Position numbers and translations under genes: made by a program. Positions 4,363 to 29,757 of a DNA stretch of 37,304 bases are shown in pieces. The stretch spans positions 1-37,304 of the forward strand of contig DATJCV010000371.1 in assembly GCA_035497775.1 (NCBI GenBank). The letters run 5' to 3'. The notes under the pieces are model-generated. The model saw only the letters and a program-made list of their open reading frames with translations, was not told where the DNA came from and made no database searches. The first letter of the stretch is position 1, and every line of letters starts with the position of its first letter. The DNA comes from Burkholderiaceae bacterium (GTDB lineage Bacteria; Pseudomonadota; Gammaproteobacteria; Burkholderiales; Burkholderiaceae_D).

Positions 4363-5350
4363 ACTCGGCATCCAGAAAGGCGCGATCCTGATGCTGGCAC
4401 TGGGCGAGGATGAAGCGGCCGAAGTCATGAAATACCTCGGCCCGCGCGAAGTACAGAAGCTCGGCGCCGCCATGTCGGTGATGAAAGGCGTGGCCAACGA
4501 AGACCTCGGTGCGGTGTTGAACGAGTTTCGCAATGAAACCGAGATGCACACCTCGCTCGGCCTCGATTCGGACGAATATATCCGCTCCGTGCTGACCAAG
4601 GCGCTCGGCAACGACAAGGCATCCTCGCTGCTGAACCGGATTCTCGGCGGGCGCGACGCGTCCGGCATCGAAAGCCTGAAATGGATGGATGCGCAATCGG
4701 TGGCCGACCTGATCCGCCACGAGCATCCGCAGATCATCGCCACCATCCTGGTGCACCTGGAGCGCTACCACGCCTGCGAGGTGCTGGACCAGTTCACCGA
4801 GCGGCTGCGCAACGACGTCGTGCTGCGCATCGCCACCCTGGATGGGGTGCAGCCGGCGGCGCTGCGCGAGCTGAACGAGGTGCTGACCAAGCTGTTGTCC
4901 GGCAACGAAAACCTGAAGAAGAAGCCGATGGGCGGGACACGCGCCGCCGCGGAAATCCTTAATTTCCTGTCGGGCGAAAACGAAGCTTCGGTGATGGAAA
5001 ACCTGAAGAACTACGACGCCGACATGGCGCAGCGCATCATGGACGAAATGTTCGTGTTTGACAACATCATGGACATTGACGACCGCGGCGTCCAGATCAT
5101 CCTGCGCGAAGTGCAGTCGGAATCGCTGATCATCGCACTGAAAGGCGCGCCGCCGGAATTGCGCGAGAAAATCTTCAAGAACATGTCGCAGCGCGCCGCC
5201 GACATGATGCGCGAAGACCTGGAATCGAAAGGCCCGGTGCGCCTGTCCGAGGTCGAGGCGCAGCAGAAGGAAATCCTGCAGATCGTCCGCAAGCTGGCCG
5301 ACGAGGGCCAGATCATGCTGGGAGCGAAGGGCGATGATGCCTATGTCTAA
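4355..5350 (+). CDS. fliG: flagellar motor switch protein FliG
   Basis: 331 aa. It has a typical FliG N-terminus (GAILMLALGEDEAAEVMKYL) and C-terminal torque helix region (MSQRAADMMREDLE). Confidence 0.95.
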   Translation: MSELGIQKGAILMLALGEDEAAEVMKYLGPREVQKLGAAMSVMKGVANEDLGAVLNEFRNETEMHTSLGLDSDEYIRSVLTKALGNDKASSLLNRILGGRDASGIESLKWMDAQSVADLIRHEHPQIIATILVHLERYHACEVLDQFTERLRNDVVLRIATLDGVQPAALRELNEVLTKLLSGNENLKKKPMGGTRAAAEILNFLSGENEASVMENLKNYDADMAQRIMDEMFVFDNIMDIDDRGVQIILREVQSESLIIALKGAPPELREKIFKNMSQRAADMMREDLESKGPVRLSEVEAQQKEILQIVRKLADEGQIMLGAKGDDAYV

Positions 5351-7420: not shown

Positions 7421-7511
7421 TCGACGGACGCCGGCGCCAAATACAATTAGGGCATATGCAAGACGCTTGCCGTTCGGTTACGGTCCAGCCGCAGCCTTGA
7501 TAGTTAATCGA

Positions 7512-7578
7512 TGGAGTATGTGGCTAAAATCGCCGCTATAAGCTCGATATCCACCGCTAACATTTGGAGTATATGGCC
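7512..7578 (+). repeat. bipartite GGAGTAT-N46-GGAGTAT element, copy E1
   Basis: The a-site is TGGAGTATGTGGC (core 7513..7519) and the b-site is TGGAGTATATGGC (core 7566..7572). The cores are exactly 53 bp apart. The copy lies in the 200-bp AT-richer gap between fliI and fliJ. Confidence 0.7.
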
Positions 7579-7620
7579 TTGCCAGTTCGCACGAACGGGT
7601 TTTAAGGATTCGATTCATCT

Positions 7621-9328: not shown

Positions 9329-9372
9329 TAGCTCTTCTCCGCTGGCGCTACCCTTCATCTTCCGCCGGTTTC

Positions 9373-9394
9373 TGCCGATAAGCCTTTATCGGCA
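9373..9394. terminator. perfect inverted repeat downstream of fliK (hairpin, no U-tract)
   Basis: TGCCGATAA-GCCT-TTATCGGCA: a 9-bp stem with a 4-nt loop, 45 bp after the fliK stop. No T-run follows, so function as an intrinsic terminator is uncertain. Confidence 0.3.
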
Positions 9395-9596
9395 TCCCGG
9401 CGGACAGCGCAGGCAGCTCTCCGCAGCGCCATTCGCCGTCATTTTAATTGACCCGGCGCAACTTTCGTCGCCGGCATCGGGTAACATAAAAGCGCCGATC
9501 TAAAACGGCTTCAGCCCTCTCTTCTTCGCATGCGGGCTGCGGCTATTTACCGATAATGCACTAACCGGTTCGTCGCCACGGACCAGAGGAAACAGG

Positions 9597-10139
9597 ATGG
9601 CAACAGCAAGCCCGAGGAGCATTCCGCGCGCGGTACCCAGACCCGCTCCGGCGGCACCGCCGCCGCCCGAGCCGCAGGCAGAGACGCCGCGCAAATCGCG
9701 CAAGAAACTTTATCTGTTTCTGTTGCTGCTGGTCTTGATACTGGGCGGCGGCACGGCCGCTGCCTGGCTGTATTTCAAGCCGGCGATCACGACTGCCAAG
9801 GAGGTGCGCGAAGTGCCCAAGCCGCCGGTGTTCGCGGTCATCGAGCCGTTCACGGTCAACCTCAGCAGCGGCGAGGATGGCGAACAATACCTGCAGGTGG
9901 CCCTGACCCTGCAGGTGACGGACCAGGCCCAGGTGGACCGCATCAAGCTGTACATGCCGCAGGTGCGCAGCCGGATCCTGTTGTTATTGTCGAGCAAGAA
10001 AGCGAGCGAGATTTCCACTATCGAAGGCAAGAAAAAACTGTCCGATGACATCATCGTCCAACTCAACCTGCCTTTTGCACCGAACGGCGAACCGCAAAGC
10101 GTGTCCGATGTATTTTTTACCTCCTTCGTGATCCAGTAA
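9597..10139 (+). CDS. fliL: flagellar basal body-associated protein FliL
   Basis: 180 aa, with a single TM segment (LYLFLLLLVLILGGGTAAAWLYF). The FliL core (FTVNL...YLQV...LQV) is present. A GAGGAAACAGG RBS precedes the ATG. Confidence 0.85.
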   Translation: MATASPRSIPRAVPRPAPAAPPPPEPQAETPRKSRKKLYLFLLLLVLILGGGTAAAWLYFKPAITTAKEVREVPKPPVFAVIEPFTVNLSSGEDGEQYLQVALTLQVTDQAQVDRIKLYMPQVRSRILLLLSSKKASEISTIEGKKKLSDDIIVQLNLPFAPNGEPQSVSDVFFTSFVIQ

Positions 10140-11551: not shown

Positions 11552-11991
11552 GCGGTTTCCGATGGCTGGCAATGCCGCTGATGCTGGCGGCAGCAGCGGT
11601 GCGGGCAGCGGAAGCCACCCTACCGGCCGCAACGCCGGCAGCCGCCGCCGCGCCGTCGGCCGGCAGCCTGTTGCAGGTCTTGCTCGGCCTGATCGTGGTG
11701 CTGGCGCTGATGGCCGCCGCCGTCTGGCTGATGAAGCGCTTCGGCATTGCCCGTGGCGCCGGCAATTCGGTGGTGAAGATCGTCGGTGGCATTTCGGTCG
11801 GCAACCGCGAACGGGTGTTGGTGCTGGAAGTGGCCGACCAATGGATCGTGGTCGGCGTTGCTGCCGGCCGCGTCAGTGCGCTGGCCAGCATGCCGCGCCA
11901 GGAACACAGCGCGGCAACCGCTGCTGTTCCCGCCGCCAGCTTTTCCGGCTGGCTGAAACAAACCATCGACAAGCGCAATGGCAACCAGTAA
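11548..11991 (+). CDS. fliO: flagellar biosynthesis protein FliO
   Basis: 147 aa with a single TM helix ([22 protein letters not shown]). It has an ATGA overlap with fliN and sits immediately upstream of fliP. Confidence 0.75.
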
Positions 11992-13108: not shown

Positions 13109-13906
13109 ATGATCACCGTCTCCAGCGCCGAACTGCAGGCATGGATCGCCGGCCTGTTGTGGCCGCTGTCGCGCATCCTCGGCCTGATCATGGTGGCGCC
13201 GCTGTTTTCCAACCGCAGCATACCGATGCGGGTGCGGGTTGCGCTCGGCATCATGATCGCACTGATCGTGGCGCCTACCGTGACCAACGTGCCGGCGATC
13301 GACCCGATGTCCGTCGCCGGCATTTTACTGCTGGCGCAGCAAATGGTGATCGGCATGGCGATGGGCTTTGCCATGCGCCTGGTGTTTGCCGCGGTCGAGA
13401 TGGCCGGCGAGATGACCGGAATGACCATGGGCCTGGGTTTTGCGACGTTTTTTGATCCGCAATCGCAAGGACGCTCGTCGGCCGTCAGCCAGTTCCTGGC
13501 GCTTCTGATGTTGATGATCTACCTCGCCGCCAACGTTCACCTGGTGCTGCTGTCGGTGCTGGTGGAGAGCTTTTCGGCGCTGCCGGTCTCGCCGGCGCCG
13601 CTGGAGGGCGAAGCAATCCGGCAACTGGTGCTGGCAGGCGGGCGCATCTTCAACCTCGGGGTGCAACTGGCGCTGCCGATGGTGGCGGCGCTGTTGATGA
13701 CCAACATGGCGCTCGGCATCCTGACCCGCGCGGCGCCGCAGTTGAACCTGTTCGGCATCGGTTTTCCAGTCACGCTGACGGTCGGCTTCATTCTGATCGC
13801 GCTGTCGCTGCCCTATCTGGCGACGCCAATGGAGCGCTTGCTGCAGGATGGAATCGAGCTGGTACGGCACTTGGGCAGCATGCCGCCGGCTGTCCCAGCA
13901 CAGTGA
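13109..13906 (+). CDS. fliR: flagellar export apparatus protein FliR
   Basis: 265 aa polytopic membrane protein starting MITVSSAELQAWIAGLLWPL. The ORF in the track opens at 12992, but that extension overlaps fliQ and is non-membrane-like. Confidence 0.9.
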   Translation: MITVSSAELQAWIAGLLWPLSRILGLIMVAPLFSNRSIPMRVRVALGIMIALIVAPTVTNVPAIDPMSVAGILLLAQQMVIGMAMGFAMRLVFAAVEMAGEMTGMTMGLGFATFFDPQSQGRSSAVSQFLALLMLMIYLAANVHLVLLSVLVESFSALPVSPAPLEGEAIRQLVLAGGRIFNLGVQLALPMVAALLMTNMALGILTRAAPQLNLFGIGFPVTLTVGFILIALSLPYLATPMERLLQDGIELVRHLGSMPPAVPAQ

Positions 13907-13913
13907 TTAAGGA

Positions 13914-13979
13914 TGGAGTATGCTGCTTTTCCGGACGTTTATAAACCGGAACGGGACGGCACCTTCAGGAGTATATGCC
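13914..13979 (+). repeat. bipartite GGAGTAT-N46-GGAGTAT element, copy E2
   Basis: The a-site is TGGAGTATGCTGC (core 13915..13921) and the b-site is AGGAGTATATGCC (core 13968..13974). The cores are exactly 53 bp apart. The copy fills the 84-bp gap between the convergent stops of fliR and flgL. Confidence 0.7.
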
Positions 13980-26307: not shown

Positions 26308-27423
26308 ATGCTGTCCAAAAAATTCTTCCTGTCGATCCTTGCCGCCATCGCCACCGCCGCCCAGGCCGGTGGCTCGGCCCCCTTGTTTTCGGCTCGCCCC
26401 CTGGTGCTGCCGGATCTGGCGCTGCCCAGCGATCTGCCAGCCAGGCGCTTTGCGATCGACCAGCAAAGCGCCACCCTGGGCGGCGATACCCGCGACCAGA
26501 CCTGGACCACGCACGTGAACTATGCAACCGACCCCGCACTCAGCGTTGCTTACGGCCTGCGGCTCGACCCCACCCTGGCTGGCGGCACCAACCTGGTTTA
26601 TGGCACGCGCCACAAGGAGCTGCTGCTGAATGCGATTTACGCGCCGCAAACGGATCTGCGTTTCAAGTTCAGCGGCGGCCAGCTGCGTCGCACCGACGAC
26701 TTCGAATTCGCTTCCGGCACGTACGCCGATAGCGTGATGCAGCACACTTACCTGGTGGGCGTGCGCAAATACTGGGGCAGCGCATTGTTTTCCGACTTCA
26801 GCCTGAACGCATGGCATGCTTATGCAGACGATACCGACCCTGGACAACAAGCCCTAATACAAGAAACCGCAGCGGCCAAGGAGCTGTATATCGATCCGCG
26901 CGCGCTGGCGACCGGCACCCGGCGCGGCTACCTGCTCAATCTCGCGCTCACGCCGCTGCCGGAATCACGACTGGAACTCGGCACCGGCGTCGATCAAACC
27001 AGCTACCACTTCGCCGATGGCAGCGCTTCGCATGACGACAGTGCCTCGCGCCGCCTGCACTACACCCAGTACCTGAACAACTGCGCGCGCCTGCAAGGCA
27101 ACTATCAGCGCAAGGCTGCATGGCGCAGCTTTGGCGTCAGCCTTGCCAGCGGCGCCTGGAGCATCGGCGCCGCGCGCAGCGTTGACCGCGACAGCGGCGA
27201 TGGCGGCTATGCGATCAATGCCGGCTACACCATTCCGATGGGGAAAACCGGCGGTCGCCCTTCCAGCTGCGGGTCCGACCTGAACCAGGCACGCACGTTT
27301 GGCTCGATGGTCAATAGCAGTGTCACGCGCAGCGGCAACTTGCCCGTGGAGCCGCTGGTGCAGGTCGATCCGACTGCGCGGCCGGTGCTCAGCGCGGTAT
27401 GGGCCAGGGATCAAGTGCAGTAG
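26308..27423 (+). CDS. secreted outer-membrane beta-barrel protein, possibly inverse-autotransporter (intimin/invasin) beta-domain without passenger
   Basis: 371 aa with a signal peptide (MLSKKFFLSILAAIATAAQA|GG). Alternating beta-strand-like blocks, and segments such as LLLNAIYA, YLVGVRKYW...FSLNAWHAY, RRGYLLNLALTPLPESRLELG and the C-terminal VTRSGNLPVE, resemble by eye conserved blocks of IAT beta-domains plus linker. The family call is tentative. Confidence 0.4.
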   Translation: MLSKKFFLSILAAIATAAQAGGSAPLFSARPLVLPDLALPSDLPARRFAIDQQSATLGGDTRDQTWTTHVNYATDPALSVAYGLRLDPTLAGGTNLVYGTRHKELLLNAIYAPQTDLRFKFSGGQLRRTDDFEFASGTYADSVMQHTYLVGVRKYWGSALFSDFSLNAWHAYADDTDPGQQALIQETAAAKELYIDPRALATGTRRGYLLNLALTPLPESRLELGTGVDQTSYHFADGSASHDDSASRRLHYTQYLNNCARLQGNYQRKAAWRSFGVSLASGAWSIGAARSVDRDSGDGGYAINAGYTIPMGKTGGRPSSCGSDLNQARTFGSMVNSSVTRSGNLPVEPLVQVDPTARPVLSAVWARDQVQ

Positions 27424-28031: not shown

Positions 28032-28820
28032 TTAGCTGCCCTCGGACGGAGAGACCGGCAGTTCGGTCACGGTTTCCGGCAGGGACGACAGAATCACCAC
28101 TTCGACGCGGCGGTTGCGCTGCCGTTGCTCCGGCGTATCGTTGGCATCGACCGGGCGGGTATCGCCATAGCCGAGCGCAGTCAGACGCTGCTTGTCCACG
28201 CCATGATCGATGAACAACCGCACCACGCTGCCGGCGCGCACCGCCGACAATTCCCAGTTGGAGGGAAACAGCGCGGTGGCGATCGGGATGGTGTCGGTAT
28301 GGCCTTCAACCTGAATCACGTGTTGGCCATCCTTCAGTACCGCGGCCACCGCAATCAGCGCCTGGATCGATTCGGGGGTCAGCTTCGCTTCGCCGGGCGC
28401 GAACAGGACGCTGGCGTTGATTTCGATCTTGACACCGCGGCTGCTTTGCGTGACGCGCACCTTGCCTTGCTTCACCAGCGGCGCCAGCGCACCGAGCACG
28501 CTGCGCGCCATCGCCGTCATGCGCTCTTTCTCGCGCCGCAGCGCTTCGCTGTTGTGCGGCTTAGGGATGCCGAGCTGCATCGGCCGCGCCGGCATTTGTG
28601 GCGGGATCTGGGTCGAACCGGGCGGCACCAGCGGCGTCATGTGGGCCTGGCCGAAGGCGCTGCCCAGCGCATTGGACAGTACCCGATATTTGCCTTCATT
28701 GATCGACGACACTGCGTACATGACGACGAAAAACGCAAACAGGAGCGTCATGAAGTCGGCGTACGAGACCAGCCAGCGCTCATGGTTATCCGCTTCGTCT
28801 TCGTGTTTTTTTCGCGCCAT
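28032..28820 (-). CDS. motB: flagellar stator protein MotB (MotD-like, OmpA-type peptidoglycan anchor)
   Basis: 262 aa. It has an N-terminal TM segment with the conserved Asp (WLVSYADFMTLLFAFFVVM) and an OmpA-like C-terminus (VEGHTDTIPI...NWELSAVRAGSVVRLF...GYGDTRP). Confidence 0.9.
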   Translation of the reverse strand: MARKKHEDEADNHERWLVSYADFMTLLFAFFVVMYAVSSINEGKYRVLSNALGSAFGQAHMTPLVPPGSTQIPPQMPARPMQLGIPKPHNSEALRREKERMTAMARSVLGALAPLVKQGKVRVTQSSRGVKIEINASVLFAPGEAKLTPESIQALIAVAAVLKDGQHVIQVEGHTDTIPIATALFPSNWELSAVRAGSVVRLFIDHGVDKQRLTALGYGDTRPVDANDTPEQRQRNRRVEVVILSSLPETVTELPVSPSEGS

Positions 28821-28920: not shown

Positions 28921-28987
28921 AGCCATATACTCCCATAATTTATATGGATTCGCGCTCTAAATATATATGCATTGTCAATATACTCCC
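28921..28987 (-). repeat. bipartite GGAGTAT-N46-GGAGTAT element, copy E3 (minus orientation)
   Basis: Read on the minus strand: a-site GGGAGTATATTGAC (core 28980..28986) and b-site GGGAGTATATGGCT (core 28927..28933). The cores are exactly 53 bp apart. The copy lies in the 196-bp AT-rich gap between motA and motB. Confidence 0.7.
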
Positions 28988-29016: not shown

Positions 29017-29757
29017 CTATTCAAAATAGGCGCGCATCCGTTCTTCGATCACGCGCGGATTGTCGCCTTGCGCAATCCCGGCAAAGGCGTCGAGCAGCAT
29101 ATCCAGCCGCTGCACCTGCTGCGCCACTACCGCCTTCAACTTGTTGGCGATCGGCAGGAACACCAGATTGGCCAGGCCGACACCGTAAATGGTGGCGACG
29201 AAGGCAACCGCGATGCCGGCCCCCAGCTTGGACGGATCAGACAGGTTTTCCATCACGTGAATCAACCCCAGCACAGCACCGATGATGCCGATGGTCGGCG
29301 CATAGCCGCCGGCGGCTTCCCATATTTTCAATGCCTGGCGCCGGCCGCTTTCGTAGGTGGCGATGTCGACTTCCAGGATTTCGCGCATCCGGGCCGGTTC
29401 GATGCCGTCCACCAGCAGGCGCAGCCCCTTGGCGATGAATGGATCTTCGGCCCGCTCCAGGAAGCGTTCCAGGCTGAGCAAGCCTTCGCGCCGGGCGGTG
29501 AAGCTCCAGATGCCGGCATCGCGAATCAACGCTTCATGCTCCAGCGGCGGCGGCAGAAAGGCCCACACCACCATGCGCGCGCCGCGCACAAAAGGCAGCA
29601 GGCCGCTTTGCAGCAGCACCGCGCCCAGCGTGCCGATGACGACGATGACGAAGGCGGCCGGCTGCACCAGCGAGGCCAGATTACCGCCTTCCAGCAACTG
29701 GCCGCCGAGAATGCCGACCGCCGCCAGAACCAGCCCGGCTACGCTACCCCAGTCCAC
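29017..29757 (-). CDS. motA: flagellar stator protein MotA (short PomA/MotC-like form)
   Basis: 246 aa from the GTG at 29757 (VDWGSVAGLVLAAVGILGG...), preceded by a GGGAG RBS. The MotA/TolQ/ExbB channel block (GAVLGLIHVMENLSDPSKLGAGIAVAFVATIYGVGLANLVFLPIANKL) is present. The ORF in the track extends to 29943 inside fliA, with Arg-rich non-membrane sequence. Confidence 0.85.
   Translation of the reverse strand: MDWGSVAGLVLAAVGILGGQLLEGGNLASLVQPAAFVIVVIGTLGAVLLQSGLLPFVRGARMVVWAFLPPPLEHEALIRDAGIWSFTARREGLLSLERFLERAEDPFIAKGLRLLVDGIEPARMREILEVDIATYESGRRQALKIWEAAGGYAPTIGIIGAVLGLIHVMENLSDPSKLGAGIAVAFVATIYGVGLANLVFLPIANKLKAVVAQQVQRLDMLLDAFAGIAQGDNPRVIEERMRAYFE

Follow-up and report, generated by a model that had tools for sequence, protein, structure and literature searches.

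Paired heptamers in the gene gaps of a flagellar cluster

The stretch analyzed here, 37,304 nucleotides of a Burkholderiaceae bacterium (contig DATJCV010000371.1; henceforth the window), encodes a flagellar cluster of the betaproteobacterial type, in which we mapped ycgR, fliE, fliF-fliR, flgL-flgB, flgA, flgM, flgN, motB, motA, fliA, fleN, flhF, flhA, and flhB. Its intergenic gaps house five elements (E1-E5) built on two direct heptamers in the arrangement GGAGTAT-N46-GGAGTAT, whose separation of 53 bp amounts to five helical turns. These GGAGTAT pairs are members of an abundant, dispersed family of intergenic repeats that is lineage-restricted in Burkholderiales. An earlier note, made from the window alone, had presented them as five copies of the paired heptamer; the five loci are real, and the upstream (a-site) and downstream (b-site) sequences quoted for them proved correct on re-check, but its title was overstated in that only E1-E3, at 7513 (+), 13915 (+), and 28986 (-), are exact, with E4 and E5 being degenerate. 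None of 100 dinucleotide-preserving shuffles of the window yielded an exact pair, and a search allowing up to two mismatches recovered exactly five matches against 0.01 expected by chance, upholding the proposed excess over shuffled sequence. The window contains seven exact heptamers, each within E1-E5, and, as had been remarked, none of the seven falls in coding sequence; the gene map also bears out the placement of all five elements in gaps between genes with a lower G+C content.

E1 (7513-7575, +), an intact and exact copy, lies in the 200-bp gap between the tandem genes fliI and fliJ inside their operon, and comprises the a-site GGAGTATG (7513-7520), a central CG (7545-7546), and the b-site tGGAGTATATG (7565-7575); it matches the family profile in nhmmer with E=2e-10. 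E2 (13915-13977, +; E=3.8e-10), likewise intact and exact, nearly fills the 84-bp gap between the convergent fliR and flgL, whose stop codons lie at 13906 and 13991, respectively. The third intact and exact copy, E3 (28924-28986, -; E=1.6e-7), occupies the 196-bp gap between the tandem motA (end at 29017) and motB (start at 28820), again within an operon and in the orientation of that operon. The two degenerate copies, each with two mismatches, share the 570-bp gap between the convergent ycgR and fliE and are directed away from each other. E4 (1646-1708, -; heptamer pair running from 1708 to 1649) combines the a-site GGAGTATG, with its heptamer GGAGTAT, and the b-site CCAGTATATG, with CCAGTAT; it is placed 66 bp beyond the ycgR stop, is directed into the 3′ end of ycgR, and scores weakly against the profile. 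E5 (2061-2123, +; pair running from 2061 to 2120) has AGAGTATG (heptamer AGAGTAT), a CG at +32/33, and GGAGCATCTG (heptamer GGAGCAT), and is directed into the 3′ end of fliE, which stops at 2150 (E=2.4e-4). Between these diverging elements lie 352 bp (1709-2060) without a recognizable gene, where two open reading frames (ORFs) of ~90 amino acids show no Pfam hit and a low third-position G+C. By eye, this interval is unlike the one inside a similar divergent pair in L014/L024 (the L-numbers denote loci fetched from element-bearing or related genomes).

A lineage-restricted repeat family and the anatomy of its unit

A scan of reference genomes, one per species, with the pattern GGAGTAT-N46-GGAGTATATG returned at least 109 stretches, nearly all from Burkholderiales, with about ten of the listed matches being evident chance occurrences in unrelated phyla. 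Among the matches listed, the family spans several genera of two families; its named carriers are Ottowia beijingensis, Curvibacter soli, Xylophilus sp., and Undibacterium arcticum, and four uncultured 'Burkholderiaceae/betaproteobacterium' genomes hold 11-30 loci each, dispersed over many contigs. One uncultured carrier genome (L037) is identified as a relative of the window organism because it possesses the orthologous fliR/flgL region, at ~84% nucleotide identity to the window; judged by FliJ, the nearest named relatives are Herbaspirillum, Noviherbaspirillum, and Herminiimonas (64-69% identity). The genes beside sampled copies code for an EamA transporter, PPK2, RpiA, an HlyD-type protein, and a response regulator, and with copies thus found beside unrelated genes the suggested link to flagellar and chemotaxis genes does not hold. 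The density of elements (5 in 37 kb here and 2-3 per 20 kb in relatives) extrapolates to several hundred per genome, assuming that the flagellar region is typical. Our literature search found nothing relevant for the motif or for comparable repeats.

An ungapped alignment of 113-114 non-redundant family copies, in which the heptamers are imposed by the search pattern (perfect heptamers, ATG, and the 53-bp distance were required for most copies), delineates a non-palindromic unit of ~63 bp, or ~73 bp counting phased flanks. Its edges are sharp, with the information content at background before -1 and after +62, and its ends are GGAGTATG at one side and GGGAGTAT(ATG) at the other. The family consensus reads gGGAGTATGt..aaaat.cg.ccattttaCGccCG..AtagG..g........GGGAGTATATG, of which the interior part, t..aaaat.cg.ccattttaCGccCG..AtagG, is weak. 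By eye, this consensus fits neither the sigma-28 nor the sigma-54 spacing, in agreement with the earlier note. The strongest feature that is not imposed by the pattern is a CG at +32/33, seen in 94% of 113 copies (1.6 bits), the AT-rich Undibacterium copies included. This CG is present in E1, E2, E3, and E5, and together with the weak consensus contradicts the idea that the spacer lacks conserved sequence.

The G+C content drops from 0.66 outside the unit to 0.35-0.5 inside it, and A/T peaks recur near positions -5.5, 4, 13.5, 25, 36.5, 46.5, and 58, with a periodogram maximum at 10.75-11.5 bp (permutation p<0.0005). The GG of the a-site is 32 bp, or three turns, from the central CG, which is in turn 21 bp, or two turns, from the GG of the b-site; these whole-turn distances would therefore place three contact points on one face of the helix. 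The 53-bp register, described earlier as invariant, is strongly preferred, being found in all 12 full copies that were reached via FliJ rather than via the pattern, but it is not absolute across the family: the fetched loci also show spacings of 52 bp (twice), 54 bp (once), and 55 bp (twice), besides a 62-bp variant considered below. The ATG after the b-site is lacking in 13 of the 15 additional copies that the fetched loci yielded, and is thus largely imposed by the search pattern. The heptamer alone is not enriched.

Several lineage-specific arrangements depart from the simple pair. In all four Curvibacter soli copies (L092, L095, L104, and L023) the a-site is immediately preceded by an inverted heptamer (ATACTCC-N3-GGAGTAT; degenerate in L023), and L002 has an inverted-end version, GGAGTAT-N46-ATACTCC, with unchanged spacing; together these point to the heptamer as a unit that binds protein on its own. 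Tandem elements sharing one heptamer, with spacings of 53 and 55 bp, form a three-site array in L007 (881-998, -). Carriage of the element by phages was considered and rejected, in that 121 matches to the 14-base pattern in viral contigs have the CG at +32/33 in only four cases, and none fits the family profile, leaving them as chance matches without the family interior. Two further observations came from metagenomic sequence. A high-G+C metagenome contig (L298, ~620-680, -) matches the family interior strongly (TGAAAAAATCGCCATTTCACGCCCGG) with no GGAGTAT at the expected positions; this match could have arisen by chance or belong to a related family that has other ends. The interior pattern also caught, by chance, an AT-rich repeat unrelated to the family, tatgaaaaaatttccatttcgacgccgaaaatttct, which occurs on several contigs of metagenome Ga0081606 (L292 at 674-775, L244, L270, L281, L295, and L312), with two in tandem, 77 bp apart, in L292.

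Insertion, retention, and position relative to genes

Flagellar clusters of relatives, fetched through FliJ homologs, show filled and empty versions of the same gene gaps. The E2 site is filled in the window, L111, L112, L114, and L037 and empty in L117 and L118, and the E1 site is filled in the window, L116, and L119 and empty in L111, L112, and L114. A copy at the E4 site, with the CCAGTAT variant, is shared by the window and L111, where the 53-bp register is ungapped; one at the E5 site, with CTG after the b-site, is shared by the window and L114, where it is intact (4482-4544). The fliK/fliL gap has a copy on the + strand in L111, one on the - strand with 62-bp spacing in L112 and L114, and a partial one on the - strand (a-site only) in L119, and is devoid of the element in the window and L116. 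The 62-bp variant lies directly after the fliK stop (L112, ~11730-11810, -; L114, ~11660-11745, -), with GGAGTATG as the a-site and CCAGTAT as the b-site; its extra length in L114 is an interior GC hairpin (GCGGGCTC...GAGCCCGC). No copy was found anywhere in the flagellar clusters of Noviherbaspirillum sp. UKPF54 and Herbaspirillum sp. RV1423, in which the fliI/fliJ gap is only ~35 bp long.

The empty orthologous gaps contain no heptamer, and therefore insertion brings in the whole unit, both heptamers included, and the latter do not represent duplicated target sequence; duplication of a target site or an att core is ruled out on the same ground. The precise boundaries of insertion are not definable, as close genome pairs are filled in both members and distant ones are too diverged. 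In the fliI/fliJ gap of relatives without E1 (L111, ~9945-9975; L114, ~9935-9965) there is a hairpin, e.g., GTCGTCCC...GGGACGAC, and similar sequence (CTTGCCGTTCG and CTTGCCAGTTCGcacGAACGGG, then TTTT) flanks E1 on both sides in the window, at 7467-7476 and 7581-7600. The sequence flanking E1 could be a partial duplication made at insertion, the flanks being too diverged to say.

Once in place, the ends and the interior of the unit fare differently. The E2 copies of L111, L112, L114, and L037 have the same ends and the same 53-bp register with diverged interiors, confirming the expectation that motif and spacing would be kept in related genomes. Across the 12 correctly aligned orthologous pairs (a thirteenth, E4 of the window and L111, was discounted, its coordinates being 7 bp off), a-site identity is 7-8/8 in every pair and b-site identity 9-11/11 in all except the E2 pair of the window and L114 (8/11), with interior identity ranging from 0.34 to 0.84 and usually below that of the flanks. 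The pair L065/L082 retains the 53 bp through offsetting indels. Judged from these comparisons of sequence, purifying selection is shown to act on the two direct end motifs, the central CG, and the spacing, with the interior drifting. Copies within one genome have interiors with a mean identity of 0.39-0.55 (39-43% in the uncultured genomes) and a maximum of 0.60-0.73; copies being at most 73% alike, the family is therefore old and has had no recent burst.

The distribution over gap types was tabulated from gene calls that, for the fetched loci, are crude and based on third-position G+C. Elements are present in 39 of 111 gaps of the convergent type, 45 of 374 of the tandem type, and 5 of 88 of the divergent type, such that occupancy of convergent gaps is ~4-fold that of tandem (p=1e-7) and ~9-fold that of divergent ones (p=3e-7); of 98 downstream genes, 61 are convergent. 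Three convergent gaps of 83-84 bp, that of E2 among them, consist essentially of the element, and in L020 the element supplies the stop codon of the upstream gene. Elements are thus shown to be tolerated mainly after the 3′ ends of genes, in operons and between convergent genes. By comparison with known repeats, this is the REP/BIME pattern, and it is opposite to the distribution expected of a promoter or operator.

Interpretation of the element and its alternatives

We interpret the five loci, with a confidence that stands about midway, as REP/BIME-like dispersed repeats that would act in double-stranded form and present a putative protein with two sites on one face of a bent spacer. The unit enters a gene gap whole, by insertion; thereafter its ends and spacing are held by purifying selection as the interior drifts. 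Action as duplex DNA is suggested by the exact whole-turn spacing, the ~11-bp phasing of A/T, and the absence of a fold. The direct heptamers (a-site, GGAGTATG; b-site, GGGAGTAT, often then ATG) and the central CG would lie on the same face of the helix, the A/T tracts recurring every ~11 bp would bend the spacer in one direction, and a sequence-specific protein or a small oligomer could in this way contact both ends. The end motifs and their spacing thus probably hold a putative DNA-binding protein, and the likely outcome, by analogy to the BIME/RIP elements of enterobacteria that recruit IHF and gyrase, would be a complex at the ends of genes with an architectural or boundary function. That protein, or one related to it, may in addition spread the element. 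The complex could mark a boundary, form a topological barrier, carry out transposition, or combine a structural role with transposition, as has been suggested for REP/RAYT and BIMEs; we favor an architectural role at the 3′ ends of genes, with insertion as the origin of the copies. A more specific version, which we put forward tentatively and regard as the less probable part of the proposal, is that the elements are, across the genome, landing sites of a putative sequence-specific architectural protein of Burkholderiales, forming 3′-end boundaries against read-through or the spread of supercoils, i.e., 'insulator' sites that would spread by insertion and then be kept by the host. Of the possibilities floated in the earlier note, a protein on two same-face sites is the best supported, by virtue of the five turns, the A/T phasing, the lack of a fold, and the retention of ends and spacing, but its casting as a flagellar regulator falls away with a family that adjoins unrelated genes.

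Several observations weigh against this proposal. Among copies that were not selected by the pattern for 53 bp, about a quarter of the spacings are 52, 54, or 55 bp; the orthologous pair L014/L024 differs in spacing (53 versus 54 bp), and the 62-bp variant is present in two relatives (L112 and L114). The apparent invariance is inflated because the search pattern demanded perfect ends and a 53-bp gap, and sampling of metagenomes with an interior pattern gave only two clear members, both with exact ends, which are too few to count. Orientation in tandem gaps is biased toward sense (29 versus 13 antisense, p=0.02), unexpectedly so, since a purely DNA-level, orientation-neutral function does not predict a bias. 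In Ottowia and Curvibacter the center of the element is a strong GC hairpin, and the element may have a single-strand or RNA role in these lineages. Lastly, we deduce the DNA-level mechanism from geometry and from the lack of a fold.

The chief alternative is a purely selfish, non-autonomous element, whose heptamers would be sites of a transposase or recombinase encoded elsewhere and whose distribution would reflect tolerance of insertion with no host function, a reading that we consider possible, if unlikely. It accommodates the filled and empty orthologous sites, the differing positions and orientations within the same gap across lineages, the depletion of promoter gaps, the stop codon donated to the upstream gene in L020, the spread over several genera of two families, and the tandem dimer with a shared heptamer in L007. 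The suggestion that the heptamer pairs are the ends of a small mobile element is to that extent supported by the filled and empty sites, but the other hallmarks of such an element were not found. Terminal inverted repeats are absent, the ends being direct (GGAGTATG ... GGAGTATATG) and the ends of the interior lacking conservation, and there is no hairpin for a Y1/HUH enzyme. No target-site duplication was seen, given flanks without conservation and empty sites without a heptamer, the exact boundaries being unfixed and the flanks too diverged. Near-identical copies from a recent amplification were absent from the genomes compared, in keeping with interiors that never exceed 73% identity within a genome. 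An all-against-all ORF comparison over 740 kb of loci gave only orthologs, with no recurrent neighboring gene or transposase, and the genes between paired copies are ordinary, namely trpA and a 314-aa ORF with no evident similarity to transposases (this ORF was not scanned against Pfam); a linked transposase or cargo was accordingly rejected for these loci. Old orthologs with perfect ends and length, maintained through offsetting indels, are moreover unexpected of decaying relics.

An element acting at the RNA level, within 3′ untranslated regions or in the intervals separating cistrons, in which GGAG(UAU)(A)UG is bound by a dimeric RNA-binding protein or by ribosomes and influences mRNA stability, processing, or polarity, appears improbable to us. 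The copies after co-directional genes or within operons (E1 and E3), the sense bias of 29 to 13 in tandem gaps, the sites with GGAG followed by AUG, which resemble a Shine-Dalgarno sequence and start codon, and the AU-rich interior in a GC-rich genome would all suit it. Folding of 113 copies against shuffles, however, gave a mean z-score of -0.33 with no average pair probability above 0.12, the aligned copies show no fixed-column covariation or consistent base pairs, and a dyad scan detected only a weak dyad about position 25 (C17G18 with C32G33), strengthened to a GC hairpin only in the Ottowia and Curvibacter subfamily, with a central stem of at least 5 bp in ~10% of copies, particularly those of Ottowia. 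A structured RNA or single-stranded DNA was rejected on these results as a general form of the element. Further, ~30% of tandem-gap copies have the antisense orientation, no recognizable gene lies upstream of E4 and E5, both of which point toward convergent genes, and the strict length with ~11-bp A/T phasing is a property of duplex DNA. The AUG of the b-site is not general (being lacking in 13 of 15 unselected copies), and short peptides from the ATG of either site were dismissed, their ORFs being short and not conserved between orthologs. RNAs recognized by CsrA/RsmA present A(N)GGA in hairpin loops, usually with one overlapping a functional ribosome-binding site. Here no GGA lies in consistent hairpins, three of the five window copies face convergent genes, and the spacing is helically phased, so that recognition of this kind, another of the earlier proposals, is not supported. 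In the window there is no Rfam match at the gathering threshold, and ten element-bearing loci yielded only 6S RNA and a tRNA, both away from the elements.

As to an element serving a dedicated regulator of flagella and chemotaxis, as its binding site or promoter, the five copies in one 37-kb flagellar cluster and the recurrence of E2 in the clusters of five related genomes speak for it, and we nonetheless give it almost no credence. The vast majority of the listed copies are elsewhere in the genome beside unrelated genes; convergent genes flank E2, E4, and E5, a setting that calls for no promoter; elements avoid divergent gaps; and the flagellar clusters of Herbaspirillum and Noviherbaspirillum are without the element. 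Promoter scans detected no sigma-70-like promoter at E1, E3, or E4/E5, no terminator-like site is present inside any window element (one lies downstream of E3, outside it), and the family consensus has no stem; a promoter or terminator role was dropped on the strength of these scans. A flagellum-specific role is excluded for practical purposes.

Among known repeats, the closest likeness to our preferred reading of a protein-bound DNA element is to the REP and BIME sequences of enterobacteria and pseudomonads, which are similarly short, multicopy, intergenic, and lineage-specific, located at gene 3′ ends, in operons, and in convergent gaps, and rare in promoter gaps; the many intergenic copies biased to 3′ ends, a trait of REP/REPIN, recur in the present family. 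REP/REPIN sequences are imperfect palindromes with a stable hairpin and a GTAG head that act in hairpin form for RAYT enzymes, whereas the present element has direct end motifs and, in most lineages, no stable hairpin. A RAYT (Y1 transposase) gene flanked by inverted repeat copies is a further mark of REP/REPIN; in the 740 kb of loci, no gene recurs beside the copies. BIMEs are modular, with conserved ends and a spacer recruiting architectural proteins (IHF, gyrase), the RIP/RIB type binding IHF. A fixed five-turn spacing and highly diverged copies set the present family apart from REP and BIME alike. It also resembles the Neisseria NIME (intergenic mosaic elements, with variable units flanked by 20-bp dRS3) and Correia elements in being betaproteobacterial, abundant, and intergenic, with conserved short ends and a variable interior; an IHF site is present in Correia elements. 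The latter, however, have TA target duplications and many near-identical copies, the ends of dRS3 and Correia are inverted, and neither has a fixed 53-bp register of direct heptamers. With the Haemophilus uptake signal it shares a short invariant core and helically phased A/T tracts, recognized as duplex DNA; the uptake sequence is a single 9-bp core, mostly inside genes and in both orientations, in contrast to the bipartite, 63-bp, intergenic element. In integron attC sites the inverse core and core form inverted repeats around an imperfect palindrome, arrayed beside an integrase; the present copies have direct ends and no palindrome and are singly dispersed. Ends of the IS607 type were also considered: these lack terminal inverted repeats and target duplications, have GG at their junctions, and contain subterminal repeats bound cooperatively by transposase dimers, in kilobase-sized elements with tnpA, with or without tnpB, and little target or flank specificity (PMC6188088). 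They were set aside because there are no such genes near the copies examined and a 63-bp unit with two matching heptamers would stay unexplained. By eye, the element also recalls E. coli Ter (AGTATGTTG), the SlmA site, the ops element of RfaH, and the IHF consensus, likenesses that we regard as coincidental or confined to a subfamily.

Few sequence-defined organizers of bacterial chromosomes and operon expression are known. Small dispersed repeats (REP, BIME, Correia, and ERIC, for instance) belong to them, and nearly all of these repeats are palindromic. A family whose direct repeats stand exactly five turns apart, with phased bending and clear purifying selection for both ends and length, would point to a different recognition logic and a putative new protein partner. 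The element also accounts for the oddly long gaps in otherwise compact operons (fliI/fliJ and motA/motB), and is useful as an annotation marker, not to be mistaken for a flagellar regulatory site. It is short, and half-turn versus full-turn changes of the spacing offer a direct experimental handle.

Other features of the cluster lie apart from the element. In the fliK/fliL gap of the window, a block at 9350-9400 (CCCTTCATCTTCCGCC...GCCGATAAGCCTTTATCGGC) is conserved in L111, L112, L114, L116, and L119 and holds the palindromic GCCGATAA, similar to the sigma-28 -10 element, on both strands; a second block, GGGTAACATAAAAGCGCCGAT, at ~9470-9500 upstream of fliL, is conserved in the same relatives. 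From their sequence and position, both blocks are likely to be a FliA-dependent promoter or regulatory sequence of the fliL operon. Finally, a 371-aa ORF at 26308-27423 (+), belonging to no Pfam family and with a coding-like third-position G+C, is situated at the cluster's edge, flanked by flgN and a low-affinity iron permease gene.

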